A stretch of DNA of 64,000 nucleotides from Proteromonas lacertae (Eukaryota). The notes beneath the pieces were generated by a model that searched no databases, was not told the DNA's origin, and saw nothing but the letters and a program-made list of their open reading frames with translations. The stretch is taken from contig NGBS01001161.1 in NCBI GenBank assembly GCA_002245135.1, positions 248,001-312,000 on the forward strand. The letters are read 5' to 3'. A program made the position numbers and the translations under genes. Positions 143-64,000 of this stretch are shown one piece after another. Position 1 is the stretch's first letter, and the number at the start of each line of letters is the position of its first letter.

Positions 143-2820
143 TTATATTGTTTCATAAAGCTTCATATCTCCTAATGTTTTACCAATTTTCACTTTAACT
201 ACCAAAGGGACATTGAATTTAACCTTATAATTATTCTCCAAATAACGGATAACTTCTACTTCCATAATCTGTTTATATGTCTGTACTAAACTGGAAATTT
301 CTGTTGGAGGTAATACTGGTACTTGAATAACTAATTCATCATGTAATTGTAAAATCAGCTTGTATTTCTCACTTCTATTGGGGTTTAAACGATTCAGTGA
401 TTGTAATGAGTTGAATATTCCTATCATTGCATATTTTATAATGTCACTTGCACTTCCTTGAATAATACTATTAACAGCTTGTCTTTCAGCTCGACTATTC
501 AAAAAAAAATAAAAATTCTAAATGTATATACAACTTTTCAGATTCATTTTTACTATGGCAATTTGATATATATCTTCTTCTTCCCATTATACTCTTTATA
601 TAATTATTATATTGAATATCATTCTTCGTATTACATATGAATGACTTGATTCCTGGAAATTCTGATAGAAAATGATTCTTTAAATTTATTGCTTCATGTA
701 CTGTAATATTCAATTTCTCACTTATATCATTGATACCCATTCCATAGCAAATACCCTAAGCAAATAATATATATAAATATATATACTAACGTTATGCATT
801 TAGCATTATTTCTTTCTTTGTCATTTATATCTTTAATATTTTTATGGTATATTTTACTACTCACTAATCTATATATATCACCATCATAATTATTATTATC
901 TTTAAATAATTCCAACAGATGAACGTCATTACTATACTATATAAACAATAATAACAATAAAATATCCAATACATATGCCAATATTCTCATCTCTATCTGA
1001 TTATAATCAAATGATATAAATAATGTATTTTTATCACTATAAAACGCATTTCTTACATTGAAACTTAGTTTTTCATTTATTACTATATCTTCCTATTATT
1101 ATTATTATATAGATAATATATATATACAGAAGGCATATTTTGTATGTTTGGATTACACGAACTTAACCTCCCTGTTGATGTATTAATATGATTCCAATGT
1201 GAATATATATGATAAGAACCATCTGAGAATTCTCTACAACATTCATTATATCCATTTATATAAGTGCTATTATTAATATATTTTAGTGTATTATACTTCA
1301 GTATTTTCTGTAATTTTCTATACTCTATTATTAAATTCGGAAATTCATGTTGATCCTTTAATTTCTATATAATATTATATATATATACATATAACTTATC
1401 ATTATTATACATTTAATATATTCTTATTTGATGATAATTTCTTCATTTTGGATTTACTTTCATTCAATGATAAATGTAAAACATTAAACAATACATTACT
1501 CACCTGTTCACTTGATGATAAAAGAATTGGAGATGGTAATAATGAATTAGCTTTTATTTCAATCTTATTACACAATTCATTTATTATATTTTTATAACCA
1601 TTCATATATTCATAATTATAATTCAACCCTTCTATTTCTAACATTGATAGAATAGGAATAACTTTAGATTCAAGTGAAATGAATGTGAAATAGAGATGAT
1701 TGTTGATTAATTCAGTTTTAATCTTTTCGTAGAGTGATTTTATGATTAACAAATTGTATTTTAATGATTCTATTGACTGAACTTTATTAACTATATAACG
1801 AATAGAAAAAAATGAAAAAATATACTCGTTTCATTATTCAAATATTTCAAACACAAATCTTCAACTGTCATATTTATTGTTTCATTTTCACTATTTAATA
1901 TCCAATTAGCTATTTTAACATCTCTAATTCCTTGATATTCATCTACATAATTCATTACCGTTTTTATTGATTGTTGACAATCATAGCTAATTATTTCTCT
2001 TGAATTTCCTTTAAATATTGACTTATATAATTCTATTTTCATTTCATTTGTGATTTGCTTATTCGATATATTGAATGATAAAGATGGTATATAATAATAT
2101 TTATATTTATCTTTAATATTGTACATTATAAATAACCCTTTCCATTTTAACTACAATCTATTAAAGATTAACTTCTGATTATTTTATATTTAAAAATGAT
2201 ATATCTTCTGGTATTACTGATACTTGATAATTTTTGTGTTTTGATTGCTTTAATTGTAATAGAAAATGTGGTAACATATCATCTCCATATAATGAAAAAT
2301 ACCATATTCTCTTCACTTCGGTTTTTAGTTCAGCAATTACCGATTCATATACGCTTTGACTACTAAATGCATTATATGTTTTGCTCTAATATGTATTAGT
2401 TATAGTAATAATAATTCTACTGTGAATAACTGATGAAATAACAAAAATGAAGCTGAATCAGGATGATTTATTGTCTGAGAGAAACACTATTGTCTAGATG
2501 AAAAAATATGGTACTGATAGTATTGTTGATTGATTTTTAAGTTGTCTGCCCATCGTTTTTATTCTCTTCTTTGGCAAATCTACCACTTTTGGTAATAACT
2601 TAGTAATCACCTCGTCATTGTGAATTCTTTTACGTGTATTCAATGTAGCTGTTAGTGTTGATTTAATATTCGCTTTAACTTGATGATTTATGTCTATTTT
2701 CTTCTCTTTAACTAAATTCTCTGGATTTTTTATTTGTTCCCTCATTCTAAGCACTTCTAAAAAGCTTTGTGGAGGTTTAGGAGGTTCAAGCCTTGCTTTT
2801 AATCGAATAATCTCAAACAT
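143..2820 (-). CDS. Family A DNA polymerase (Pol nu/Pol theta polymerase-domain-like, no helicase), multi-exon
   Basis: Spliced motifs TSTGRLSSCNPNIQN, DYNQIEMRILA, AKCITL-GICYGMG, GRRRYI, AERQAVNSIIQGSASDIIK, LQLHDEL. Start codon uncertain. Confidence 0.85.
2151..2202 (-). other. Candidate U12-like intron (AT-AG, 52 nt)
   Basis: ATATCATTTTT...ATCTTTAAT-AGATTGTAG. Removal joins PED to LKWKG in frame. Longer GT-AG alternatives (67/73 nt) also fit. Confidence 0.55.
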
Positions 2821-8312: not shown

Positions 8313-9668
8313 ATGCTTAATAAAATAACAAAGGTTTCTACAAGATCTGTTACTCAATTGGCAATGAAAACAACAGAAAAGAATATAATAGTAAATCAAA
8401 ACACTCAAAAGTTGTTATCATATTCTTTACAATTTGTTGATATTAATTATTTTACTAAAAAGAATAAAGTGTATTTAGATTGTTATAATCAGAAAATAAC
8501 GCATTATAAAGATCCACATTTATTATCATCTATAAAAATATACTATTCAATATCATTTTTTCAAATGTATATAAGATAATATCCCTAATTGTTTTATTCA
8601 TCTTCTAATTTGAGAAATAATTATTTATGTTCCACAATAAATTTTGATCAAATAGAAATAATTAAAAGTATATATATACTATATAATAATTCTTAACTGA
8701 TAATAAATAGAAAGAGAAAATCTTCATGGATTGGTAGAAATGTATAGTAATTACTTTCCTCATATAAATAAATATATTTTCTGTTGTAAAACTATTGAAT
8801 TACCAGTAAAAGTATTATTATTATTATTTATATATTATTTTGACATTTACTTTATATTGTTATAGAATTATTTACAAACAAATCACAAAACAATTTATCA
8901 TATGTCATTTGTTACAAATACATTGAATAGAAAGAGTGGGAATTGTAATTTAGATATTGTTATTCCTAATGTACGACACAGTTTATCGAATGAATTAATT
9001 GATGTCATTAGTAAATCAATTGCAACTTACACAAGTGAAACAGTTGATATTAATTTAATAAGAAAAAGTATAGATTTGTTATCATCTCAACCAATACCAT
9101 TTACTGATAAAGAAATTAACATGTTCTTCAGAAATCACAGTGTTTCCCAAAATAATTATCGTTTTGGTAAAATATATCATAAAGTATTACCCTCTTTATC
9201 ATTGTTGTTATGCCTGAAAACACAATTATTTCCATATTTTAAAGAAATTTATGAAACTGTAAAAATGATATTATATCACAACAAATATAAGTGTAATAAT
9301 CAATCTATTATTGATTATTTATCTTATACATACAATCGAGATGATGTATTTCTTTCATAATTGTTGATTTGATAGGTTAAATATTGCATGAAAAAGTTGA
9401 TAGATTGGAAATTAATAGAGATGAATGAGAATAAAGAATATGTTCAATTACCAAATTCCATTTTAAATAGTAGAATATTTTTAAAAAAGCTTATACAATA
9501 TGCTTATAAAGTAGCTCCAGAAGTGGCAAATAAATTAAAGGTAAATGACTGGATTGAATATATTTATGGATCTAATGTAATAGTATTATTGAAAAATAGA
9601 ATTTATATATATAATAGATTCGAGACAATGACAGAAAAGAATTATATGATGTATTACTACTTAATTAA
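8313..9668 (+). CDS. Hypothetical protein, possibly mitochondrion-targeted
   Basis: Exon chain linked by micro-introns; basic, Ser/Thr-rich N-terminus (MLNKITKVSTRSVTQL). No family recognised. Confidence 0.5.
8550..8597 (+). other. Candidate U12-like intron (AT-AT, 48 nt)
   Basis: ATATCATTTTTT...ATCCCTAAT-TGTTTTAT; removes an in-frame TAA. A 48-nt GT-GAG alternative (8567-8614) also restores frame. Confidence 0.5.
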
Positions 9669-9717
9669 TTTTGATTGTTTTTTTAAGAGGAAAATTATTT
9701 GGCTTGATACTTAAAAT

Positions 9718-13937: not shown

Positions 13938-14617
13938 TTAATTAGAGAATATGTTCTTTTTGTCTTTTTCATATGCTTTTGGATCAGCTTTTCCAAATGG
14001 ATGTTCTTTAGCAAATTTTTGTATTCTACGAAGAATAGGTGAGTCTACAGATTTTGGTGGTGTTAATCTACCAGATACCCATCCTAATATATCTTGTGTT
14101 TCTGCATTCAATATTGTCTCATATTGCTTTAGTTCTTCTCCATTAAGTTTATCAAGTTATACTGATTAAGTCATCATTGCATTTATTTTAATCAAAAATG
14201 ATATATTTTCATATGTCCATTTTCCAAGTAATAAATCAACTTCTAACATACCTCTCTGTTTACTTCTATACAACAAACGCTTTCTTAATACTTCATTCTA
14301 TTAATTACACTAATTTCATTTAATAATACCCTATCTACTTTACCATTTGGTGGAAGACTTTCTTTGGGAAATTCTTTGGGTAAATCATAATACTTTTCTC
14401 TTAACTTTTGATCTTCTGAGTGTATTTTATCAGAAAACTTCTTCATTGCATCTTCGTATGGTAAGTTATCATATGTTGGACGGCCTTCTTCAAATAAAGC
14501 AATACTTGGGTAAAAAGAACGACTAATCTATAAATACACTAAAATTATCACCTATACTAATTTTGTTGATGACTTAGATAAAAATCTAATTGAATTAATG
14601 CAAGTTCTACCAATCAT
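13938..14617 (-). CDS. SDHAF2: Succinate dehydrogenase assembly factor 2 (Sdh5)
   Basis: RKRLLYRSKQRGMLEVDLLLGKW...ELKQYETILN...DILGWVSG; presequence-like N-terminus. Not in the ORF track. Confidence 0.9.
14157..14204 (-). other. Candidate U12-like intron (AT-AA 48 nt; AT-AC 51 nt alternative at 14156-14206)
   Basis: ATATCATTTTT...TGACTTAAT-CAGTATAA. Contains two in-frame stops inside conserved SDHAF2; no GT-AG solution keeps the RGMLE motif. Confidence 0.75.
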
Positions 14618-16645: not shown

Positions 16646-19317
16646 ATGGAATCTGATATGAATTACTCAAAGAGGAAGAGAGCTACATCATTTATCGCAT
16701 CAGATATTATAGAATTCTCATTTATTTGGATTTTATATTTTGGATACTACAGCAAGTTGGTGTATAGAACTGTGAATGGAAATAGTTCGTATTACATTTT
16801 ATATATCGATAGAACAAAATACATCATTGAAGCTTTAGATGTTGAGAATTCAACAAAATCATCATATTCTCTGATTGTTTCACTACTTATTAAATTTATT
16901 GGATTAATTGACATTACATATTATGTAAATCTGTTGTGCTCGTGTATATATTCAATCTAGTATAATGTTTTAGTTTTTCTCTCCATGAGCATTTCTTATT
17001 TATATTTAATTATATGTAATATCTTAAACATATCAAAAAATATACATAAATGTCTAATATTTCTTATTTCTACATTGTATATTGTAAATTGTATTGTTTG
17101 AAAAATAGTTATGCTTTATCTTCATTTTGCACAGAAATTGCTGTCACTGGAAGTTTAAAATCATTAAATATGCTCTATCTTAGTATGATAATATATTTTG
17201 CCATAAAATTCAATCAAAGAAGTACAATTTCATACTTTGTGTTATTAAACATTTTAATGGATTTGTCATTTACCACATCAGTATATATATATATTAATGG
17301 TATATTGTTGATAGTATTCATTATTACCTCTCATAATATTCATATTCATATGGCTGATTATTGAAGTAGTATTTATAAAGAGAAATATGAAATATGTAAT
17401 AATTACACTTATCTTTATTATGATATGTATATATATTTCAATAATTTATTATTTTAAATAGGTGTAATGATGAATTATTCTTTGGTAAAGAGAGATATAA
17501 ACGCATATCTAAAGTATATAACTCCTACTTATCAAAGTGTTTATAACTATTATTATTCTAATGGAAAAAGTATATATTATTATTATCACTTTTCTACTTT
17601 ATAGATTATGTTGATTTACTGTATATGTTTTTGAGTGATCTTCATACAAATCAGACATGCAAAATGGGTTTATTCTTGTTAGGGTATATATCCAATTTAA
17701 AATACAAATATACAAAAATAGAATTGGATTAATTGTCAATCTATTTCATTGGTTGTTTATGGAAAAGAATTTTTCATGTTTATACTATTTCATATTCTGT
17801 GGTTATATATCGTATTGAATAATTATATTTAATGTGAATAGATTGTTTCTATACCATAACAGAACCACATTTTATCTTAATCAATCTTCTGTAGATTTAC
17901 AACAAACAATTATTAATGAATGGTGTTCAATTAATTTCATCACTTTTATGTATATTGGAATTGGCTTTGTATGGATTGTTACTTATATTTCTGATCAATT
18001 ACAGATTCATTTAATGCTTCTAATGATTAGTGGTGGATTCTTTTTGATTAGAAATCAATTTAAGAAATCAATAAAATACAACAGAAGTGAAACAAATTTC
18101 ACAAGTAGTTATGGAAAAGCTGTTTTATCTTTTCTTCCAAACAACAAATCTGTATTGATAATAATGAAATCTGAGTATCAACAGAATATATTGAAGTATC
18201 TTCAATTAAGTGATAATTTCCAGTATATTTTTTTTATATCTTGATCATTGTTTAGATCTAACATTATTGTCACATCTGAATCATCGCTTATATCTCCTTA
18301 TTATCAAAACAAATTAATAATAAAACCAAAAAATAAAACATCATTATTACCTCTTCATTTACAGGTATTATAAAAACATCATTCTATTAAATAGTATTCA
18401 ACAAGATTGCATTATTTCACTTATACTGAGTTTATAAATGAAAATTATGATAGATTTTCAGATGGAATATTATTATCTAATTCAGTATAACACTTTTTAT
18501 TTTTCTAATCTTGAAACAGGAAAATATTGCATATCTAGATTATAGTTTTAATAAAACGTATGATTTAATTCCATTTGGATTTCTACAACGAGTGTATAGA
18601 AAAGGAACATATAATGAATCTATGTATGATTATTATCACAATAACATGGACAGATTTCACATAATTAATCAAGTATGATTATTTATTTGAAATATTTGTT
18701 CATAGACAAATATAGATTTGTTTGATACATTACCAATAGCAAAGAATTACAAAGAAAATACAATAGAAGAAGAAATCATAAATGATTATTGGAATGCTGT
18801 ATTAATTATATATATACTATGTATAGGTTGGTAATTTTGGTTGTGTATTAATAAGAATAGCAAATTTACATATGAATTACCTATATTTAACTCAAGGTAC
18901 AAGAATAATGGATGAATGGTATGATAATACTTTAACTCCATTATTTCAATATCATTTTTTGAAATGTATTGGACATGGACATTATACACATGTTGGACCT
19001 GGAATATATCCTACACCAGCTAGAAGAGATGATACTGGATATAAACCTGAAGGTTATATTCTTACAAAGAATTCAATTAACACACATTCTATATATTTAG
19101 ATCATCGTAATAATGAGTATATTATTATTATTATTATTGAATATATAATAGATGGAGGGATAAAAGCTTAGAGAGATTATGTGAAGCATTTACTAGATCT
19201 TTGTTATGCACAACATTTACAGAGAAAGACCCAGATGTTACAGGAATAGAAGAGATTTTAGCAACATGGTGTCCCTCTCCAGAGCCTTCTACAAAATATG
19301 TCTATCAATTCACATAA
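16646..19317 (+). CDS. Multi-pass membrane protein, weakly TMEM260/DUF2723 (GT-C glycosyltransferase)-like
   Basis: Many hydrophobic exons followed by a soluble C-terminal part (YDLIPFGFLQRV). The family call rests on weak resemblance only. Confidence 0.4.
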
Positions 19318-21141: not shown

Positions 21142-24100
21142 ATGGTTTTTAAGATTATATTTATATTGTTATCAATATATTTTGATGTTGTAGCAGCTGA
21201 TACAGAGTCATTAGTTATTGGATATTTGCATCGAGGACCTACAGATACTTTCTATAAAGAATTTTTTGAGAAACTAATAGAAGATAATAAAAACGATATA
21301 TCTCCCAGCACTATTACTTATAAAGAGTTTCCTGTGGCTAATGATTTAAGTGATTTAGATGCAAAGCTCCAAGAAATAAAAGAAACCGAAAACCTATTAC
21401 ATGTATTTACTGATGATACAATATATGGCAAAACTGATGAATTGAGTAATTACCCATGTTATTTTTGGATGGCATATCCACTTGCTCAGGAGAAATGTTC
21501 CAAGAATGTAATATATTACAGTTCATTTGTTCCTATGATGATTTCATGTATTTATATTATATTTATAATATAATAGTTGGTCAAGCATTTGTAAAAAGAT
21601 TCCAAGATCCTAGAATCAATGTATATATCGTTGAAGATGATAAGAATAATGTTAAGAACAATAATGTATATGATATGATGAGTGGTAATATCAGACATTA
21701 TGGATTTAACTCTGTATTTGATATTTTACCTGAGAATTTTGATGCAAATATAACATCAATCTTATCAAAGAATGAAAAATCAATATTCTTGTGGGTAAAT
21801 AGAAATAAAGATAAAATAAAGAAGTTTTATGGTGATGCTAGTTTTGATTCAACTAAACATATTGTATATTCATTCATTCACTTTGAAATTAAATCAATAA
21901 CATCTCCTGGAATAAATACATTAAAAAATCTAAAAGAATCAACTCAAATGTTTACTGTTTATATCAGGAATGCTACAATGTTTGAAGCTAACATTACAGC
22001 ATTAGATTCAACAAGACAGTTTACATATACAGATATTATGTTTTACAATATGTTTAAACTTTTATTAAAAGGTTTTAAAGGTCATGACAATTTTGCTCCA
22101 CTTGCATTAAGTTATGAAATATACTATAAACATTATTATGATTTAGAATCAGGTGCTGTTTATCCATTACCTCATAATTTCATATCAACTTCATATTATC
22201 ATGTATCATTTAAAGATAAAGGTGATAATGATAATGATGATTTAGATGTAATACATGAATATTTACCAAATGTTTATTTTGACCCAAAAGAACAAATGGG
22301 TAATGTTCCTTTACAGCATTGTAGTTGGCAAGCAAATCCGTTTACTGGTAACGTCAGCATTAGTCCTGTTGTTGTTTTGTTCTTAAATCCAAATAGTGGT
22401 GAGGCAAGTCGTAACAGTGTATTGTCTATACTTTATTTATTATATTGTTAATAGCAATCATTAAGTGATTTAGAGACAGCAGTTGTTGATCATATTAATA
22501 GACAAGGAGGAGTACTTGGCACTTATATTCGTGGGTATGTTATTAATACAAATATACCTTGGGAAGTTTTGAAGATAAAAGTATAAATAGTTTATATTTT
22601 TTAAATAATTATAGCTAATTGGATTTTATAATAGATATAAAGTTCCAATAATGTTTCAATCGTCAGTAGGAGAAACAGCATCTAAGATACATGACTGTAT
22701 GAATAATAATTCTATTATTTCATTATAGTATCAATTGAGCTAAAATGGGAAAATATTTTTTTATATTTGAACAATATACCTCGTGCTCAGTGTAATAATT
22801 ATGGAACATTCTATATTGGAATGTCTGCTTCAGTTGTATCGAAAGCATTAGTTAGTCATTATTTAGAGGAAAATATTAATTCAGTTTTTATAGTTGGAAC
22901 TACAGAAGAGTATCATTTATTAATTGTATTTATATCATTGTTTAGATTTTCAGTAGCTTTATTAGATCTATTAAAAATAAGATTGACAGAATATGAAATA
23001 TTTATCGAATCACAAGCAATAATGGCTGCTACTGATCTGGATAATGGTATTGTAATAGCTAAAGCAATCAAGAAGTCTTATCCAGATGGTGGTTATGTTA
23101 TTAATGCTGCATCAAGTTCATATAATCAATATTTATTTGAAGCATTGAATATTGAAGGTGTAAATGAGACAAATGGTTATTACATTTATAATGTATTTTT
23201 ATCTGAACAAGATGTTACTTATTTTAGTAATTCAAATGTATAATGATGTAGTTATTAATATTAAATAGTTGACTGGATTTTATTCTCTTGGATATTATTT
23301 TGATTCAGAAAAAATACCATCAATGGAAGCAATAAAGAGTAGTTTATATGATAAAGACTATAGATTAACATCAGATTTAGTTATTGCAAGAAATGCAATT
23401 GAAATGGTAAAACAGATAATTGTTAATTCTGGAATATATAATAAAGCAACACTTCAACAGTATATATATTTTATTAATCTTATCATATTCTGTTTATAGA
23501 TTTATGTTTTCTCAAACAATAACCGATCCAAGTATTTACAGCATTGAATTTTCTGGTTTTGCCAGAATGAAAATAAAAATATATAAAGTGAATTATTTAA
23601 ATGAATTTGAAGATGTTTATACACCAAAGTTTACATTTTATTCAGATTATGCTTACCCATCAAGTTATGTTTGTTCTTGGAAAACTAGTATACAATTATA
23701 TTAATTTAATATTATTTATAGCTGAAAGTAATGGACTTAGTAAATATAATTTAATGGTTTTTGGTAGTATTTATGATAGAACAAATCCAGATCATATTCC
23801 ATACATAACACAATTAACTAATATTGTAGAAGCAGTTAATTCACTTGAAGTATGTCCTGATACAGTTTTCCATATTTATCAATTCAAACATTTAGATGAT
23901 GATCCATATAAGAACTATGAACTAAACATTTTTGAAATGGTTCATAATACTTATAATAATTCTGATCCAATCTTTCTTGGTATCTTTGGAGGATATGATG
24001 GAGAAGAAATTGAAAGAATTGAACCATTATTAAAGAAATTTAATTTGTTATTCTTTGATTTACATCCTCATTATGGTGAAACATGTAATTCTCAAGTTGT

Positions 24101-27100
24101 TCATGTTGGAGGTACTTTTAATCAGTTTGGAGAATCCCCTTTAGTATTTGCTCTTCAAGATACAGAATTAGTTGCTATTTTTACTGATAATTTAGAAAAT
24201 AACATACAAATATCAAATACAGCTGTGAATATGTTAAATCAGTTTACTACTACAGATTATTTTAATGAAACAATTTTAGATTCAACTAATTGTAGTATTT
24301 ACAATTCTGTTATTGATGAATTTGATGGGAAAACTGCAAGTATATTTATATATATGAATCAAGAAAATGCAGAGAATATTATATTGAATTGTTATTCATA
24401 CAATCCCAATATTGATGTATATGTGTTTGACATATGGGATCAAACTGTTCATAAGAATCCAGACAAATGGAATGGAGTTTATATTATGTCTACTTATCTT
24501 ACATCACTTAATAATACAGAGAATCGACAATACTTTATATTATTATCGAGTAAGATAGGTAATCCGCATGATTTTATAACTCCATTTGTAGTAAATGTTT
24601 ATGATTCATTGTTGTTTTTTAGAAAAAGTGGAGATTTGGTAAGATCGCTAATTGAGAAAAACCAATACTTGAATATATTATATAATACAGAAATGTCATC
24701 AATTTATGGACCAACATCATTAGGTAATAACAATTATTTGGACAGACCGATATATATAACGCAGATTGTGAATTGTACAAACTGTGAATATGGTTTTTAT
24801 CATGATACTATTTATATTAGTTCAACATCACTCAAAGCAAAACCTTATGCAACATATGTATATATTTTTGTTATTTATATCTAAATATAGAATAATGATA
24901 ATAAATATTATGAATGTAATTTTGTTGATAAAAATGTCCAAGAGAAAAAAGATATAGACACTTTCAATACTGCATTTTTGATTGATAAAAATAGAAGATT
25001 AGAATCTTTTGGAATATATGGATTGTTACTAACTATGATTCAAGAAACTAATACTGATGGAGGAGTAAGAGGCAAACAGATTTCACTTATTGCTAAATCA
25101 TGTCCAGTTGCTGATGCTTCTGATTTATTTCTAAAACTTCAGTCAGAAAATGTAAGATATGTATTTAGTATTTGCTCTCAAGAATCATTTGAAATTATGA
25201 GAGAACCCATTAGTTTATTAGATATTATATTCTTTCAAGCTGGTAGAAATTATGGAAAGGAATGTGCATATAATGTTATAATGCTTGGCACAGCTGGTTA
25301 TCAAGAAATTACACCATCAATTGTGTATTTAATCAAGGAATATAGGATGATAAATGTTATTTTTATATTCAAAACTGATAAATATAGAGCTTCAAGAATA
25401 AGTCTCATTAAATCAATATCACCTCTTACTACATTTTCTAATCCAGTTTTTATTGAAATTTCACCTGACAATACAACCGATGAAAGAAATGATATTCTAA
25501 GAGATGCTGTTAATTCATTACAACAGTATCCAAATAAATGCTTAACTATTATGTTAGTAGATCAAGATGATTTAGAACAGTATTCTGAGTATTATTACAA
25601 ATTATTTGGAGGAAAACCAGAAACATTGAAAACTGCATTACAAACATTTCCCGTAGTAGTAATGACTGATTTAAGTGGTATTTTGAATAATCCACAATAT
25701 TTAGAAGGATATAGGATTATATCTTCATTTGCTGCTACTACTAAAACAGAGTTTATTGGTGATTTTATTGATACAGTTGGATCTCATGTAGATAAATTCA
25801 TTATTCCATACAGTATCGTTCAGGTGTACGATGCATTTATGTTATTGACTTATGCAATACAAAAAATAGAACAAACTACTGAAGACATTGAAAAGATTAT
25901 TGACCAAATAAAAGAATATGTGCTAACTGGTGTAACTGGATATTCATATATTGATGATAATAACCATCTACTACAGCAGATACTGTTTAGTACAATTAAA
26001 GATGGTATTGTTGATGATCCAATACAAATATCTGAAGTATATCCATCTCATCCTTTTTACACTGATTATGACTATGAAAGAGAGCTGAGATGTGTAGGAT
26101 CGAAAATTATTGAAATTCCTTCTATTGTAATTGCAGTGTTTGTGTCTATAACCGAAAGTGAGATTGAGAAAAACTTGCAAATGATAGAAGCAGCAATGAC
26201 ACAGTTTGAAACTACAAGTTTAGATTTATATGGATATAATCAAGTAATATTGTTGTGCGATATTAAAGGATATTTGGAAGTAATGGGAAATTACTGTTTT
26301 CAATTTGCAATGAAGAAGAATGCAGTTGCTATTGTAGGAACAACATCGTATTTATAGTATGTATTTATATATCGAATAGATCTGAGCAACTTGAATTCTT
26401 TGCACCTCTATGTGATGAATATGATATACTCTATTTTGTTCCTTTTTTAACAGAAGGTAAACAGTGTTATAAGAATACTATATTTTTAACTCCTCCAATA
26501 TCTGCATATGTATATTTATATGTAATTATTGTTATATAGAATACTCTCTTTTCTATAATAACTAAATCATTTGATATGGATACAGTAATGGTAGTGAGTA
26601 ATTCACAAAATACAAAAGAAATAGCAAAATATATAGAAGTTGAGTTAGCTTATCGTGGTTTAATTATTTTAAAAGTTTATACAATTCCATACATAAATGT
26701 AGATTTAGATCCAATAGCAGATACAATTAAGAATGATTTACCAAATGGAGGATTTGTCATTAATCTATTGGAAAATGGTCCTGCACTTGAGTTCATAAAA
26801 GTTATGTATAAAAAAAAACTTTATTACCCTGACTATAAGATAATGTCATTCTTTGTAGATATTGATTCGATAAGTAATGAAGAATATGGAGAAGTAATGG
26901 TGAATCAATATTTTTGGAATAGTTATAATCCATTTACAATTGAACCACTTTCATCTTATACATTATGGTATGAAAAAATATTTTCATTCAGAGACTACTA
27001 TTCATCAATGGCAACTGCATCTTATACTTCACTATCTATAATAGTATTAGGATTAGTTAATGTAGATGAAATTACGCCCGAAAATATAAGAGTTTTATTT

Positions 27101-30100
27101 CAAACACATTATATTACTTGTACATATGGACAAATTAATTTAGCAAATACAAATATATTTGATGTAAATATATATCTTTCGCAAGTTATTATGGCTGACG
27201 ATGGTAGTTATTCAGTTTCAAATGTGTATCAATCTATTCTATCAGGAGTTCCAGAGGCATTGCAATTCAATCCAAATTTTTATGAAACATGTAATTTTGA
27301 TGAAAGATATGGAGATATTGGAAGACAACAATATTACTATATTAAAATAGGAATTTTACTCTCAATGAGTGGTTATGATAGAATAAATGATGCTCCATTG
27401 TTGGAAGTTATACTAGGATATTTTAAGTATATCAATTCTTTAACAACAGTTCATGGTTATAAATTATTAACACTTTTAAAAGATTTGAAATCTGATGTAA
27501 ATAATGTACAAGATGCAATATATGATTTAATGGATAATTATGTGAATATTATAATCGGTTGTACAGATAGTGATTGTAAGGATAAAGTACTTGAAGAAAT
27601 ACACTATGATGCAACTATAATGTTCTTTTATATTGGTAATTCTAATGGAGAAGAATGTTATACAAATGGTTATTTTACTGGTCATTTACCCAACCAATAT
27701 GTTACTCAGACGATTGAATATATTATAAAATCAGATTTACCTCAATCATTATTAATAGTTGGAACAGAAGGTTCATCTTTTTCTATGCAGCTTGCTGCAA
27801 CAGTAGAAAGTACAGCTGGTGCGTTATTATTTACATTGCCTGTAGAACTGTTAGAATCTGCATCTACGTATAATGCATTTTTGTACAATTTACCTTCTCT
27901 TTGTCCTGATGCAGGTTGTTGTATTATATTAACAAGTGATGTGAACGATGCAATCCAATTTATTAATGATTTTCATTCATCGGAGATGTCTTCCACTTTA
28001 TACCCAATTTTTACATTAACATTAAATTTGAATAATGAAAAATACTTTATAAATAATAATTTCAGAGATTTTTATATTCCAACAATCTATTCTAGTTTAG
28101 CAGAAGAATTTTATGATAATCGTAATGTGAAAAATAAGATTAAACACTATGTTGGATATGAACCAAATGATGCAATAATTCAAGCTTATTATGCTGCGGA
28201 TATATTGACTAATGGTTTTATAAATGCTCCAAGTTTAGCTCCCTATGTGTTTGACGAAGAAATTGTTGATTATCCATTACAAGGTCCATTAGGAAGTTAT
28301 TCTGTTCATAAGACTCATTATGTTGATCATCCTTATATATTAGTACATATCAACTCAAATGGTGAAGAAGAATTAGTTACTTATTTCCTTGAGACAATTG
28401 TACCACAACCTTGGAATTGGATGATAAATACAGAATTAGGTAAATCTTGTTCTTTTAGAAGAGGTTCGACTGCATTTATTACTACAGAGAAAGTCTCTAC
28501 ACTTACTTCATTTATTAATATGGCAGGAGAGGATGGTGAATTGAATAATGGTGTATCAGAAGCAATAAATGCAGTAATTGATAGTTATAATGCTGCAAAT
28601 GGAATAAATGGATATACTATTGTTCATTATTTAACTGCAGTTGAAAATGCAGAAACTGCAAAGAAGTATATAGGTGTAATAGAGAATAGTATTAACAATC
28701 ATGCTGATGATATAGTGCCAATGTCGCCATTAGTATTGATAAGTGTTGATGATGATAGTCGAGATGCAATTTATAGTAAAATATCAGAATTGAAAGGTTT
28801 ATTGGTTGATGTATCAATGTCAGTTCCAAATTATTGTGAAAAGAGTGTTGTATCTGCAAGTTTAACAATTGGTTACTATGATAGATTATTGGATATTATT
28901 ATTCATAGACATTATCCTGGTTTTGCAATTATCAGTGAATTAGATAATGTAGCTTCATCTTATGTAAAGAAATACTTAGAAAGAAAAGGTGGTAGTGTAT
29001 TGATGGTTTATTATGATGAAAATAACTTGAATGTAATTGTAATGTCATCTTTATTACATACATTAAAATCTCAATTCTCTGAAGGTTGTTTAATCTTTTT
29101 AGGTAAATCAAAATATCATTCTTTATTAAATGCAGGAATGATAAATACTGAATTATATGAACCAAAATACCATTTAATATCGTTTACAAGTGGTGGTGAA
29201 ATAGTAGATTCAATCGAGAATATATTACCATTTGAAGCAGCTGGTGCTTATTCTCAATCAATAAGTCGAAATGAAAATACTGAATTTCTAAACCGAATGA
29301 AAGCCTATTACACTGGTTCAACATTTTTGAGTGATAGAATAGCTAGAACTTACTCAGTATTAAGTCTATTGTTTGATTCAATGATAAAAGCAGGAACAGT
29401 AAGTGATTTTTCTTTGATAAGAGAAACAATGTATCATACCAGTTATTCTGCACCTGAAGGTGTATTGACATTATCTGAGAATAATTATCTAACTCGTGTG
29501 AATGACATTATCAACATATGATCCTTCAAGCAAAACATTTACTCTTGTTTATTCAACCGAAACAGCAGTTGAAGGTACAGCTTGGATAAGTGATGGTAAA
29601 GTAGAGATAAATTCATGTAATTTTGTAGATTTAAGTATAGGAAAAAAGAAAAAAGAGAAAACAATAAGTGTAGTAATTCCAGTTGCTTTAACAGGTGTTG
29701 ATCAAAAAGATGAATTAAAATTATTAGATTCAATATTACTAGCAATTGATGAAATAAATGAGAATGGTGGTATTTTAGATAATAAAGTAATAGCTGATAT
29801 AAGAGATACAAATTCTGATGAAGCAGAATTCCTTAGTATAGTTGAAACAGTGAAAGACACAGATTCGAAGTTAATAATTGGTGGAATAAAGAGTGAAGTA
29901 TATTCGAATGTTGGACCAAGAGTTGATAAAGTTTTATACATATTCCCTGGTTATAATCCAGGTGAAGTATGTTATGAAAATGCTATATCAGTTAATTTCA
30001 TGTTAAATCAACTAAGAAATCCATTACAGATTTATTTATACAAAGAAATGAAGACAATCTTTATAGTTTATGAATCAAATGAAATAAGTCAACAATGTCG

Positions 30101-33100
30101 ATTAATGGTAGGAAAACTAATAGGTGAATCTCATTTGACTAGTAATGGTCAGACATTATTAACAAATAGTAATATTCAAACATCAGTGATGTTAATGCAA
30201 AGTAAATTATTAGATGGTGGAACAATAGTAAATTGTCTATCTTCTTCAATAACAGTTGATCTTATGAAAGAAATGTGTAATCAGAATTTATATCCACCAA
30301 CTTATACAATAGTTAGTTTATTCTTCCAAAATCATTATTTAGATGATTTAGGTAATATAGATAGTAAATGTATAGCAAATCATTATGTAATTTCTTCCTT
30401 CTTTCCTTCTTTATCTGATGACTCTTTCATCAAAAATAACAATCTCATCCACTTCTTTGAATGGATTTGTGAATAGTTTAGGTCAAAGAATAGGTTGGAA
30501 TGAGAGAATAGAATCTTATATGGAAGCAGCCTATTCTTCAATGATATTATGGGCTGATGCAGTTCAGAAAGCCTATACATTTGATTCATCTTTAATAAGA
30601 TCTGTAATGTATGGTAGAAAATATAATTCTCCTTCTGACTTTTTGATAATATCGAATAATAATGTAGCAAGTCGAAGAATATATACAGCTTATATAACAG
30701 CGAATAAAGATTTGTATGTAGTTGAAGGTCCAGATGAAGCAATAACACCAAATGTGTATAGTGATATAAACGCAAATGGATTAGCTAATCATTATTGTGA
30801 TTGGTCTAGTGCAAATGGTGGGAAATCTTTTAAGAAATTGAGTAAGAATATTTTAATGGTTCATAATACTGATGCAACAGATCAATTAACTGATTTATAT
30901 AGATCATTAGCTGAGAAGGTGTATATTGATGCAATAAATCAAGATGGTGGAATATTAGGTTATAATCTAATAATCATTGATGCTTATTTAAGTGTAAATT
31001 CAGGTGAAATGAGAAGAAAAATAAAGAATATGATAATAGATAATGATGTAGTTGCTGTATTTGGATGTTCTTCAATATTTTGCATTGATGTAATGGAGTG
31101 AAGTAGCGAATGATTTAAAGATATTATTCTTTACAACTCAATCTGATGATGGTACAATATGTTCTCCATACACAATTCACACTGGTCCATCTATTGAGCA
31201 AATGATGTATCCTTTATCTACATTTATTCCTACCGTTCAAGCAAAAGCCATATTTGTGATTACTTATCCTCTGGATGCAATGATATACAACATAAATGAA
31301 TTATTGAGTGAAAAAATAGATCTTCCATTAGCTGGTGCATGCCTTTATAAAGAAGGAGAAACTGTATCTAGTAACATTTTCGATTCTTGTATGTCTGATT
31401 TGAAAAAAGCTTATACAAAGTATAATAGAGTATTAGTTTTTGCAATTGTCTATTCATATGAGTTATCAGCTTTTATTAGTGCATTAAAAAAGGATAACAT
31501 TTTAATGGAACATATCAAGATTGTGTTTTTTACATTTGAAAGTTTTTATTTCAATGATGATGATTTAGATTATATAGATGGAAATTTCATTATTACACCA
31601 AGTGGAGATGGAACTCAGAATACAGTAGCTTTATCATTCACAAGATTAATTCAATCCAATTTAGGATCTGATTTCCCAATAACAGCAACAATGACATATA
31701 TGTATTCTGCTCTACAATTATGGAAAGCAGGAATAGAAGTAGCAACAAAACAAGTGAATGGAGAATGGCCTGGAACAGAATATGTAAGATTAACAATGAT
31801 AGGTCAAAGAGCAAATACTCCAGGTGGAACAACAACAGTAAAATCATCAATGTATACAACACAATCATTCTATATAACCGAAATTGTCAGTAAAGAAGAA
31901 TCATTAATATATCCTGCAAAAGGAACTGTGATAGAGACAGATCCGTTATTAACATATAATGGAACGTGTGAATTTGGTATTTCAAGAAGATTGTTTTCAT
32001 ATAGCGAAGAAGAAAGAATAGCTGTATATGTAGTGGCAATCGCTATTGCAATATTTTGTGTATTTGTATGTTATTTCTTATGGAATTATCGTGAATTGAA
32101 GATAGTGAAATTTGCCTCTCCATTGTTTTTGTTTTATTTGTTAATTTCACTGTTCCTATTAGCTGTTGAAGGTACTGTATTTGTGTTTGAACCAACAAGT
32201 GATGGTTTAGTTTGTGCTTTTAGAGTTTGGGGTCTGGCATTAACAGTTGATTTGGTATTTAGTATTATTATAGCCAAAGCTTGGAGGATTCATAGATTAT
32301 TCAACAATAAAGAACTTAAGAAAGTATAATACACTATTACAATTGTTATTATTAAATAGATTAATATCTCGAATGGATCATTATTGAAAGTTATATTTGT
32401 AGTTTTAGGTGTGCAAGTGATATATCTTGGTATTTGGTGGTTAGTAGATAGATCAAAATACACAGAAACTTTTAGTCCATCTTATTCATCTTTCTTTGAA
32501 GATGTATATATTCCTGAATGTACAGAAAGTCAATACTTTATTTACATTCAAATTGCTGTTGTAGCAGTGATGTTTGTGTTTGGTATAAGATTAGCTTGGT
32601 CAGTAAGAAAAGCTTCAAAAGAGTTTAATGAATCAATCACCTTAGCTTCAACATTTTTGATTATGTGTATGAAATATATTATTCTAATTTTTATTTAATA
32701 GTGATTATTGGTGTTATTGATATACCATTGAACTTTATATTATCAGATAGTCCAAATGTATTAGTGTCATTAAGAGCATTTGGAGATGAATTAGGTGTAA
32801 TAATCATTTTATTAATACAATATTTCCCCAAAATCTATGCAGCTTATACAACATCATCTGCTATTGATACAATGACACTTGAATCAAGTAAAAGCACAAA
32901 TACCACAACTCAGTATAATTTTATCATATTATTAATAGGCAAACAAATAAATCGAATGGATCTATATCAGAATCAGTGAATGTTGCTCCAAATCAAGATT
33001 TATTAGTAAATAGAAGTGCTTCAAAGAGGATGAGTTTAGATCAAAGAGGCAGTCAAATATTTAGTGAAAAATTCAAGCAAAATCCTGATCATGATGATAT

Positions 33101-33176
33101 TATGAAAGTTGGTAAAGCTACATTAGCTGCAATATTGTTGTTATCTCGTGATTATGCTGAAATGAAAGAAGACTAG
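21142..33176 (+). CDS. Giant class C (GABA-B-like, 7tm_3) GPCR with nine tandem UrtA/AmiC-type periplasmic binding domains
   Basis: Signal peptide; nine repeats of about 380-400 aa (e.g. IDEINENGGIL, MEAAYSSMILWADAVQKA, APEGVLTL); 7TM with IVKFASPLF, AKAWRIHRLF, LAWSVRK..KEFNES, YFPK. Three apparent +1 frameshifts (about 29500, 30420-30470, 31095). Confidence 0.85.
21449..21664 (+). repeat. 216-bp segment identical to 63785-64000
   Basis: Base-by-base comparison; includes the first intron. Confidence 0.95.
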
Positions 33177-36088: not shown

Positions 36089-36623
36089 TTACCTAGTATT
36101 ACTTTTCAATGAAGACCATACTCCTGACTTCCAACTGTCGAAATCTCCATCAATATCAACACAAGCATTTCCTTCTCCTAATCTGTATATTCTAACAGCT
36201 CCCAACTTCTCTAAATACTTATCAGTAAGCTATATATCCTTTAAAAAAAACAAAAATACTCTTCCCATTTCACAGTACTTTGGATAAGAAGTATCTCCAC
36301 AAGCAAACACTGTATACTTTAGATGAGCTAATTTATTTACATAATTTGGTTCTTTCAATTTTCTTTGCAAAAAATTAAAGAATTTCTCAGCAGTTCCTAA
36401 TTCAATTATAAGAATTACATAAAATACTCGTAGGTTCACCATCGCCATATGTTGCAACAACAAATACAGCAACTTTAACATTGTCAAGTGTATTATCACC
36501 AAAATCAGCTAGATCATGAGCTTCTGCTTTAATGGCATGTGGTCCTGCTTCAAATTCCAGTGTCTCAGCGAATGATTGAGCTGTTCCAGTTTCACTCCCG
36601 TAAAAAATGTGTACTGTTGTCAT
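36089..36623 (-). CDS. Stand-alone flavodoxin (FMN-binding, CPR-type)
   Basis: IFYGSETGTAQSFA, ATYGDGEPT, YTVFACGDTSYPKYC, LEKLGAVRI; two introns. Confidence 0.88.
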
Positions 36624-47700: not shown

Positions 47701-49194
47701 ATACAGTTTACCTTCTGGTGTAAGGTATATATTCGTTTCTTCTTCACTATATTTTTCTATTAATTCTGGTTTACTTATTTCAGATATATAATTCCAAATG
47801 GATGTAAATTCTTTATGATTTATATAATAACCATATGCACCAATAGAATTATAACATGTCTCTCTGCATAGTTGACATTTTGAACTCAAGCCAAACGAGC
47901 TTTTCAATATTTTATTGAATATATCTAATGAATCATGAATATAACTTTGACGATCATCAATATGAATGGATTTCACTAAATACTCAATGACTTTAACACC
48001 ACAGTTAATCTCAGGAATGGATGATATATATACAATAAATGGAATTAATGAAGGACTTGGACAGGAATAACTTAATTCATAAATTGTATTTCTCAATATT
48101 TCAATATCAGTAATATAATTTATTTTAATATTACTCTTTTCATTGAAATTGGTATTTGATATAATTGAGAGATAAGGATATAATAAACTGGGGATTAATA
48201 TAGTTGAACAATCTTGTAACATTGAATATAACAGTTTAGAAGAATATTGATGAATTGGAGTGTAATAATGCAACTATATATATATACAAATAAATAATTA
48301 TATATATATACAGTAAATTTAGCTAAAACAGTAAACAATGGATGTGGTATTTCATTATAATTATTCAATGATAATTTTGAATAATATTTCTTTGTTATTA
48401 TCTCAATGATATCACATATACTCGTCCAAATATATTCAAACTCTTTACATTCATCTTTTGATTTACTATATTGATATAATCTATCATGGTATAAGTATGA
48501 ATTTGAATCATTGATTACATTCCATATATCTTCATTTTTATCACTATCTATTAAGTGAATTAGACTTAACCATCCTATGTAAATATGACTGATTGGAGAT
48601 TCAATCCCTTTTTTAAATATGCTAAGTAAATCCTTCTGTAATTCTAAATTTGATTGGCTATTTTCATACATTGAGGATATTGATATTAATGGTAATAATG
48701 ATTGATTTGAATTGGTTTTAATTGGTTTGGATATAAATGTATCAAAATCATTTTTAATTGAACATTTATCTTCATTGCATTTCATCCATTTTCCTATTGT
48801 ATAATAACCTAATTTCAAGATTGAATCATTTCCTTCTTTCTTAATAAACTCAAATATTGTCTTGGTTATTTCATCACAATATAATTCTCTTTCATTTTCT
48901 GGAATGAATTTCAATAATTCCATATACATTTTCATATATAACAATCTTTGACGTATATCATTTGGTCTTGACAATAACAGCTTTGATAAATAAGCAACAA
49001 CATCTTTAATAATCTCATGTTCAGTTGTCTTTCGAGTGAATAGCAATAATACATATTGATGAATGATTTGTTCAATAAGTGACTCACTACTTATTATAAA
49101 TTCATTCAATAATGGTAAAAACAATGTAATATAATATTTGGATAGATTATTCTTACAATTCGTTAAGAAATATATAATTGGAGTTACTAACATC

Positions 49195-60832: not shown

Positions 60833-61649
60833 ATGATTGATAGTATATTATATCATTTTCATATTTAGATCGAGAAAATGCATCTAATGAAGCACCACCT
60901 TCCCCTACCTTCCCTATATTATCCAGTATAGAGTAGACTATTATATTTATATAGATGGATATGGTTTAGAATATTCACATAATACAATAAACAATAGTGA
61001 CAATTTTACATACATGGATGATCAAAACCCATTTGGTTATGATCCCTTTGATGATGATGGTTTAGGATCTAATAGTCCTGACCCATACACCAATGAATCT
61101 CCTTATCAGCCTCCAGAAGAGAAAAACGACATGAACAACCTCTCAATCTCAACAATGCCAATTATAAACTCTATACCAAATGAAGCAGATAAAATGGAAG
61201 AAGAGGATGATGAAGATGATGAAATTCCAATTGATTTACTTAGAAATTCAGGGCACTTTCTATACGCAAAGAATATTCATGGAGAGAATCTAGAAAAAGC
61301 CAAGGCTGAATACATTAAAAAGGAAGGATTAACTATCACATGCAAATTCTGCAAAAAGATTATACCTAATCTTGAATACTTCTCTTATGACAAAACTGAG
61401 TATATTTGCATAGATTGTGCAGTAAAAGAATATTCCACTGTTGGAGAGTTGAAAGATAAGTATCCAGAAACAGGAAGGATTAGATGTAAACGTCTAGCAC
61501 ACTATAAACCTGAATGGCAGTTCATTAAACATTCTGAAAGATCTGGATATATAACTGGTAATTTATGCATCCACTGCAGAAATTGTAAAAGATTTGAATA
61601 TCAAGTGAAGAGATTAAAGAAAAAAACCAACTGCCGAACGCACCATTAA
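60833..61649 (+). CDS. Hypothetical protein with Cys-rich putative zinc-binding C-terminus
   Basis: Acidic/Pro-rich N-terminus, then CKFC...CIDC and RCKRLAH...CIHC. Start uncertain. Confidence 0.55.
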
Positions 61650-63528: not shown

Positions 63529-64000
63529 ATGGGCATTTTAGTAGTTTTAAATATTTTATTATTTATTCCTGCTTTTGTTGGAGCAAATTTTGCTGTGATT
63601 ATAAGAGATTCAGCTCAAATAACTTTTTATGAGACATTCTTTCGTTCTCTAGCTGGTGACCCAACTGTCCAGGTTTTTGCTTGTGATAGTGGTTTAGATG
63701 CAACTCTAAATATATTAAAGACTGGTTTATATCAACATGTTTTCACAGATGATTGCTTATACGATATGGTAGATGATCTAAAAGATTACCCATGTTATTT
63801 TTGGATGGCATATCCACTTGCTCAGGAGAAATGTTCCAAGAATGTAATATATTACAGTTCATTTGTTCCTATGATGATTTCATGTATTTATATTATATTT
63901 ATAATATAATAGTTGGTCAAGCATTTGTAAAAAGATTCCAAGATCCTAGAATCAATGTATATATCGTTGAAGATGATAAGAATAATGTTAAGAACAATAA
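63529..64000 (+). CDS. Partial paralog of the 21142 receptor (truncated by window end)
   Basis: Signal peptide, shared HVFTDD, then DNA identical to 21449-21664. Confidence 0.85.
63785..64000 (+). repeat. Second copy of the 216-bp identical segment (runs off the window)
   Basis: Identical to 21449-21664. Confidence 0.95.

Follow-up and report, generated by a model that had tools for sequence, protein, structure and literature searches.

The SDHAF2 (Sdh5) gene lies on the reverse strand at 13938..14617 of the window, by which we mean the whole 64-kb stretch of DNA that was analysed, a gene-dense eukaryotic sequence of ~26% GC. In our gene parse it runs from ATG to TAA in four exons; it matches Pfam PF03937 (E 8e-19) and its best homologue, a protein with E 4.8e-25, comes from Blastocystis sp. 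Blastoise, which is why the organism is described here as Blastocystis-like. The first two introns, at 14528..14557 (30 nt) and 14298..14329 (32 nt) on the reverse strand, were parsed as ordinary GT-AG introns, and by our reading of a metagenome locus, L065, the second occupies the position of intron 2 in Blastocystis ST7. The third interruption, at 14157..14204 on the same strand, is 48 nt long, falls in phase 0, runs from AT to AA and contains two in-frame TAA stops; it is the strongest case considered here. It opens with ATATCATTTTT (14194..14204, reverse strand), a donor with A at +6 and five T at +7 to +11, and a predicted U12-type branch site, TGACTTAAT (14165..14173, reverse strand), is found 8 nt before the 3' end and resembles the CTTAAC and CTTAAT motifs found towards the 3' end of minor introns in Blastocystis ST1.

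When the 48 nt are removed, a conserved frame is restored at a point whose position is also conserved, and on this sequence evidence we read the segment as an intron. None of 1606 frame-restoring deletions of 20-110 nt gave a GT-AG solution, and GC-AG and GA-AG registers were rejected as they removed or added conserved residues. Outside the segment the gene is intact and aligns at 56% identity with the Blastoise protein. The alignment was built with 25 of the 44 homologues, and every one of the 25 shows a gap of exactly 16 residues at this point; it is this that favours removal of 48 nt over a 51-nt AT-AC register. The latter was also rejected, as it would leave the protein a residue short of each of the 25 homologues and shift the phase from that of ST7. 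At L065:1328-1360 a 33-nt GT-AG intron, again in phase 0, follows the same Asn codon, and its sequence is the one that the published intron table gives for the annotated intron 3 of XP_012896152 in Blastocystis ST7. Because the position is common to ST7 it is taken to be old, and the same shared position sets the 5' boundary at 14204, so that the intron ends AT-AA unless the assembly misses a base, which is possible but unlikely.

When the SDHAF2 alignment was used to query the metagenome, an insertion at the intron-3 site was present in one of the 80 loci kept out of 136, namely L065, in a ranking that favours intron-less copies. No relatives with the altered donor were found by SDHAF2 read-through in the metagenome, genome or viral contigs. 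Both the GTAT with which the L065 intron opens and its final CCCTTAG may be remnants of a minor intron. L065:1-900 looks bacterial and suggests a chimeric contig.

Ordinary introns and frame breaks in the window

The intron census is our own gene parse, which gave 167 GT/GC-AG introns on hand-chosen sense spans and 160 when these spans were slightly tightened. The set of 160 is the reference for all major-intron counts; the priors of the parse favoured GTA donors, lengths of 27-48 nt and ends other than GAG, and these tallies are partly model-dependent. Under its mild length prior the predicted major introns have a median length of 33 nt, with six of the 160 reaching at least 48 nt and one at least 67 nt. 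Donors are mostly GTAT[AT], 149 of the 160 acceptors are TAG, and no intron start with ATATCC was predicted in the window among ~160 introns. On the forward strand, a 36-nt GT-AG intron at 22910-22945 starts with GTATCATTT, which is the GT counterpart of the altered donor, but shows no clear branch motif towards its end; it is possibly a converted or a GT-AG minor intron. An Rfam search returned no matches at E up to 1 within the 64-kb window, which is uninformative on the snRNA content of the whole genome.

About five frameshifts without an intron explanation occur in the ~59 kb gene span, near 29505, 30425, 42125, 42025 and 61625, the last from our own reading of the frames. Some are in homopolymer runs, and together they point to residual indel errors in the assembly at ~1e-4 per base. 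Two single-base frameshifts, ~29505 and ~30425 on the forward strand, affect a very large gene (21142-33176) in which periplasmic-binding-protein domains are repeated alongside a 7tm_3 receptor domain; a continuing Pfam profile crosses the ~30425 break, and the pair are assembly indels or pseudogenisation and not introns. No intron accompanies the other three either: those at ~42125 and ~42025 (reverse strand) fall within the C-terminal portion of a GCN1-like HEAT-repeat gene, and that at ~61625 (forward strand) coincides with an A run within a gene of unknown family. When two of the frameshifts were checked for paralogues, the only hits were to the queries themselves. The last 216 nt of the window, 63785-64000, are an exact duplicate of 21449-21664, with its 29-nt intron included; either the start of the receptor-like gene has a recent paralogue here or the assembly contains a repeat.

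Two further segments with the same donor

All three candidates considered here, at 14204, 2202 and 8550, begin with the same 11-mer. The second is a 52-nt segment at 2151..2202 on the reverse strand, ending AG, in a family-A DNA polymerase gene (143 to ~2750, reverse strand; PF00476 in the downstream exons). The frame is broken here, with stops, and is restored by deletion of the segment, in which a branch-like TCTTTAAT (2167-2160) precedes an end that lies 9 nt from TAAT. Rival GT-AG introns of 67 and 73 nt exist, and the additional 15-21 nt that they take into the intron score 10.1 and 13.7 bits as coding, with the 99th percentile for intron 21-mers at 4.3. As these rivals swallow coding-like sequence and only one of the 160 major introns reaches 67 nt, a 52-nt AT-AG intron is the probable reading. 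The frame downstream is confirmed by a 73% identical relative (P0049, of a type represented by six short-contig proteins) that does not span the junction; the three homology hits obtained for the junction all aligned only to the downstream part of the polymerase. A search with the polymerase-exon alignment for relatives with the altered donor found none in genome or viral contigs. The N-terminal part of the polymerase is divergent, and its only relative found, the 73%-identical cluster of short-contig proteins, shows that a sister lineage is present in public reads.

The third segment, at 8550..8597 on the forward strand, lies in a gene (8313-9714) of unknown family for which no homologue or Pfam family was found. 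It is 48 nt long, ends AT, contains two in-frame stops, and has a branch-like TCCCTAAT at 8582-8589 that places TAAT 8 nt from the end; its deletion also restores the frame. A GT-AG intron of 48 nt at 8567-8614, starting GTATAT and ending GAG, scores 3.5 bits worse than the AT model in a parse that penalises GAG ends, which are visible in major introns of ST1. The flag for stops in all frames holds with a 57-nt window and not with a 54-nt window. An AT-AT intron at 8550 is therefore possible, and a weaker case than that at 2202, because a GT-AG alternative of the same length exists. A preliminary description of this DNA had grouped the three segments. Its account of SDHAF2, with 48 nt, two stops, no usable GT-AG and a branch motif 8 nt before the end, was borne out by the deletion scan and the homologue gap; for 2202 and 8550 the shared 11-mer, the restored frame and TAAT 8-9 nt from the end are all there, but the description had passed over the GT-AG alternatives that exist at both sites.

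The 10-mer ATATCATTTT occurs eight times in the window against 2.9 expected, a count reached in none of 100 shuffles. This enrichment was discarded as evidence, as five of the eight matches are not intron starts (18949 is in an open sense frame, a GT-AG intron contains 60850, and the other three lie on the antisense strand). The donor motif alone is not diagnostic of an intron; the full 11-mer at 18949..18959 on the forward strand, in an open sense reading frame with no branch motif and not an intron, serves as a negative control. ATATCnTT is found at 22 sense sites, three inside GT-AG introns and 19 outside, and only three of the 19 have YYTAAY at intron positions 24-50. These are 2202, 8550 and 14204, which are among the four sites with the full 11-mer (hand-computed P 0.004, or 0.02 without SDHAF2). 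A looser ST1-style pattern with +6 left free matches 19 sense sites (11 A, 5 T, 3 G and 0 C) and 52 antisense sites, and with so many matches it means little on its own; only the three candidates coincide with a frame break that calls for an intron. When the parse was left free to use any ATATC+N start, its choices on the sense strands were 2202, 8550 and 14204, plus a dubious site at 61598 for which a frameshift in an A run is the better explanation. Two matches to ATATCCTT were also rejected, one at 36234 being antisense to a flavodoxin-domain gene and one at 48181 lying inside a 715-codon open frame.

Set against the predicted major introns, the three segments are outliers in length (48-52 nt versus a median of 33 nt), in C at +5 (three of three versus 6/160) and in the presence of CTTAA, CCTAA or CTTTAA near the end (three of three versus 2/160). 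Their GC content of 15-19% is like that of introns (16%). The branch motifs ACTTAAT, CTTTAAT and CCCTAAT stand 8-9 nt from the end and all finish in T, not C. On direct reading the segments share little beyond donor and branch motif.

Relation to the minor introns of Blastocystis

For Blastocystis ST1, 346 U12-type introns have been reported along with the full set of four minor snRNAs, and U11, U12, U4atac and U6atac are present in both ST1 and ST7 (Gentekaki et al. 2017, PMC5608401). Among the ST1 introns listed in the table of that paper, 339 of the 342 that start ATA begin ATATC, and these divide into 336 ATATCC, three ATATCT and no ATATCA; in the table as covered, with the ST7 sheet in part, ATATCA starts are absent from ST1, ST4 and ST7 alike. 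Of the ATATCC rows, both the first 57 and the last 30 belong to the ST1 sheet, and the ST4 and ST7 sheets as covered have none, so the comparison is one with ST1. A hand count of these 87 of the 336 rows gave ends of AC (53), AG (29), AT (3) and AA (2), lengths of mostly 37-49 nt versus 30 nt for major introns, and a branch motif ~3-7 nt from the end. AT-AG is thus the form of 29 of the 87 ST1 minor introns counted, yet it is called disfavoured in a review (PMC3584512), and the intron section of PMC5608401 says only 'typically AT-AC'.

The segments described here resemble the U12-type introns of ST1, as far as these are represented in that table, in their ATATC start, a 3' end of A plus any base and a branch motif within ~10 nt of the end; in ST1, too, minor introns are longer than major introns, make up ~1-2% of introns and are often in phase 0. 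Three among ~160 predicted introns fits the roughly 1% of ST1. The donor ATATCATT of all three agrees with the canonical U12 donor RTATCCTT at seven of eight positions, the exception being A at +6. A branch site of the TCCTTAAC type lies close to the 3' end in each and resembles ST1 variants, and the terminal pairs AT-AA, AT-AG and AT-AT are one-base variants of AT-AC that all occur among the ST1 rows, with no polypyrimidine tract. Several features differ from the listed ST1 introns: +6 is A in three of three, whereas ST1 has C in 336 and T in three of 339; +7 to +11 is an invariant T run, which is variable in ST1; the branch motif ends in T and lies 8-9 nt from the end rather than ~3-7 nt; no AC end is found among the three, although AC is the commonest end in ST1 (53/87); and the length is 48-52 nt.

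Free choice of the 3' base, short spacing from branch to end and greater length are therefore existing traits of Blastocystis, and what is new with respect to the published ST1 data covered here is the +6 A donor. The preliminary description was right that the candidates exceed the major introns in length, a trait already in the ST1 table, and its free 3' dinucleotide (AA/AT/AG) is seen here; as a novelty the latter does not hold, since it is already on record in ST1, animals, plants and Physarum. Its emphasis on A at +6 as a departure is upheld by the absence of ATATCA from the ST1 introns listed and by the 5' rule of PMC2846911, outside which the donor falls. It had also proposed a divergent, minor-spliceosome-like class. 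The segments are most likely U12-type; they are probably a variant of the known minor introns of Blastocystis and not a new class of intron.

Interpretation and known systems

The CC at +5 and +6 is among the most conserved signals of minor introns and pairs with snRNAs; in the minor spliceosome, positions -1 to +4 are read by proteins, and U11 base-pairs with the stretch from +5 to +10 (PMC11874965). From the sequences of three candidates, we consider it reasonably likely that these are U12-type introns of a low-GC, Blastocystis-like lineage in which the donor has shifted from ATATCC to ATATCATTTTT. At the 5' end the U11/U12 di-snRNP would recognise ATATC together with the T run, and at the branch site YYTAAT; the 3' site would be the A-N dinucleotide that follows the branch at a short, fixed interval, as it does in ST1, such that AA, AG and AT could all serve. 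The snRNA base opposite +6, in U11 and/or U6atac, would have changed from G to U, with the five-T run offsetting the weaker pair. To this compensatory change, which is a prediction, we give slightly less than an even chance; it is made because a retained G should let AT-rich drift give T through a wobble pair, as in ST1 and Physarum, and not A in three of three. The 33-nt GT-AG intron of ST7 SDHAF2 would be a minor-to-major conversion, which is likely the simplest reading of the GT-AG form, its direction being a proposal.

An alternative is that these are U12-type introns in which +6 is relaxed, or a mismatch there is tolerated by unchanged snRNAs, with AT drift as the source of the A and compensation for the lost pair by the T run or by U11 proteins (48K, 20K); in a weaker form, only the SDHAF2 and 2202 segments are real and they are rare individual variants. 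A is indeed the commonest +6 base at background ATATCnTT sites (9/16), so that three A's would come up by chance with P about 0.1-0.2 if +6 were free, and the change from C to T at the branch together with the loss of AC ends looks like general C loss in a sequence of 26% GC. A structural preprint also describes the pairing potential of U11 as limited and suggests that branch recognition may drive binding (10.1101/2023.12.22.573053). However, neither T nor C is found at +6 in any candidate, even though T is tolerated in ST1 (3/339 listed), in the Physarum ATATCYTT and in the rule of PMC2846911, and the identical 11-mer recurs in three unrelated genes. We regard relaxation as rather unlikely on balance.

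Errors in the assembly or in the gene models could also produce such segments if SDHAF2 had lost one C at its acceptor, being really a 49-nt AT-AC intron, and the segments at 2202 and 8550 were ordinary GT-AG introns. The frameshifts in the window, the AC directly after the AA in SDHAF2 and the GT-AG options at the other two sites are all in line with this. Yet a real AA end is favoured ~20-75 to 1 over a lost base (a hand estimate from ~1e-4 indels per base against 2 AA and 53 AC in 87 ST1 rows), a missing base leaves the A at +6 unexplained, the AT-AC register of 51 nt conflicts with the 25 homologues and the ST7 phase, and the GT-AG options at 2202 swallow coding-like sequence; we consider error improbable. 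Marginally more improbable still are major-spliceosome (U2-type) introns with mutated ends, by which GTAT would have become ATAT and TAG become TAA. Each is a single base away from the common GTAT[AT] donors and TAG acceptors, the ST7 orthologue is GT-AG, and one 30-nt ATATG..TAG intron is listed in ST1 (PMC5608401); against this, SDHAF2 has no GT-AG solution, the length, the +5 C and the end motif set the segments apart from an ordinary ~33-nt intron with a GTAT[AT] donor, and the introns listed in ST1 that start with AT are almost all U12-type. We hold it very improbable indeed that the segments belong to a mobile intron (introner) family or that a dead gene has taken up an unspliced insertion. 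The 11-mer in common and the similar lengths would suit an introner family, but there is little likeness beyond the donor and branch motifs and the SDHAF2 position is old and common to ST7, while the intact remainder of SDHAF2 speaks against a dead gene.

The shifted donor of U12-type introns, then, is the reading that we prefer. A bolder and more tentative extension, to which we lean less than to the G-to-U change itself, is that a whole Blastocystis lineage has re-coded its minor donor from ATATCC to ATATCATTTTT with a matching G-to-U change in U11 and U6atac. A lineage-wide A at +6 would show that the core signal of minor introns can be rewritten. If true, this class would be missed by standard minor-intron classifiers, consensus-based surveys would undercount minor introns in AT-rich protists, and gene models would break at such introns.

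We found no report of a minor donor with A at +6 in the literature searched, which covered few subscription journals; supplements to PMC12129017, PMC10639083 and the Physarum preprint could hold one. The main text of a study of low-GC tortoise isolates does not mention minor or U12 introns (Lind et al. 2025, PMC12129017), and Olthof et al. (2024, PMC11347168), in the portions covered, mention Blastocystis once and give no motif. Rapid turnover of minor introns within Blastocystis has been described, as has AT-AA as the commonest non-canonical end in animals and plants (Larue and Roy 2023, PMC10639083). The minor class is defined by its donor and branch site, with distance governing the 3' site (Turunen et al., PMC3584512), and the 5' rule RTATCCTT allows one C at +5/+6 to be T, not A (Bartschat and Samuelsson, PMC2846911). 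The non-canonical minor introns of animals and plants, as described in PMC10639083 and PMC3584512, resemble those here in their AT-AA and AT-AT ends and in a 3' site set by distance from the branch; they differ in that such introns are ~4% of minor introns there, the optimal distance is 11-13 nt and RTATCCTT is the donor as a rule. A further parallel is Physarum polycephalum, in which the branch site and U12 snRNA have changed together while the donor has stayed RTATCYTT (bioRxiv 10.1101/2020.10.12.336362). There, too, a core signal has shifted within a lineage, AT-AG, AT-AA and AT-AT ends are frequent and the distance from branch to 3' site is short and fixed, and Physarum is thus a precedent for coevolution of introns and snRNAs. 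The difference is that the change in Physarum is at the branch site and in U12, whereas here it is the donor +6 that would have become A, and minor introns have not expanded; a lineage-wide re-coding, if true, would mean that introns and snRNAs had coevolved at the 5' splice site, as a counterpart to what happened at the branch site in Physarum.
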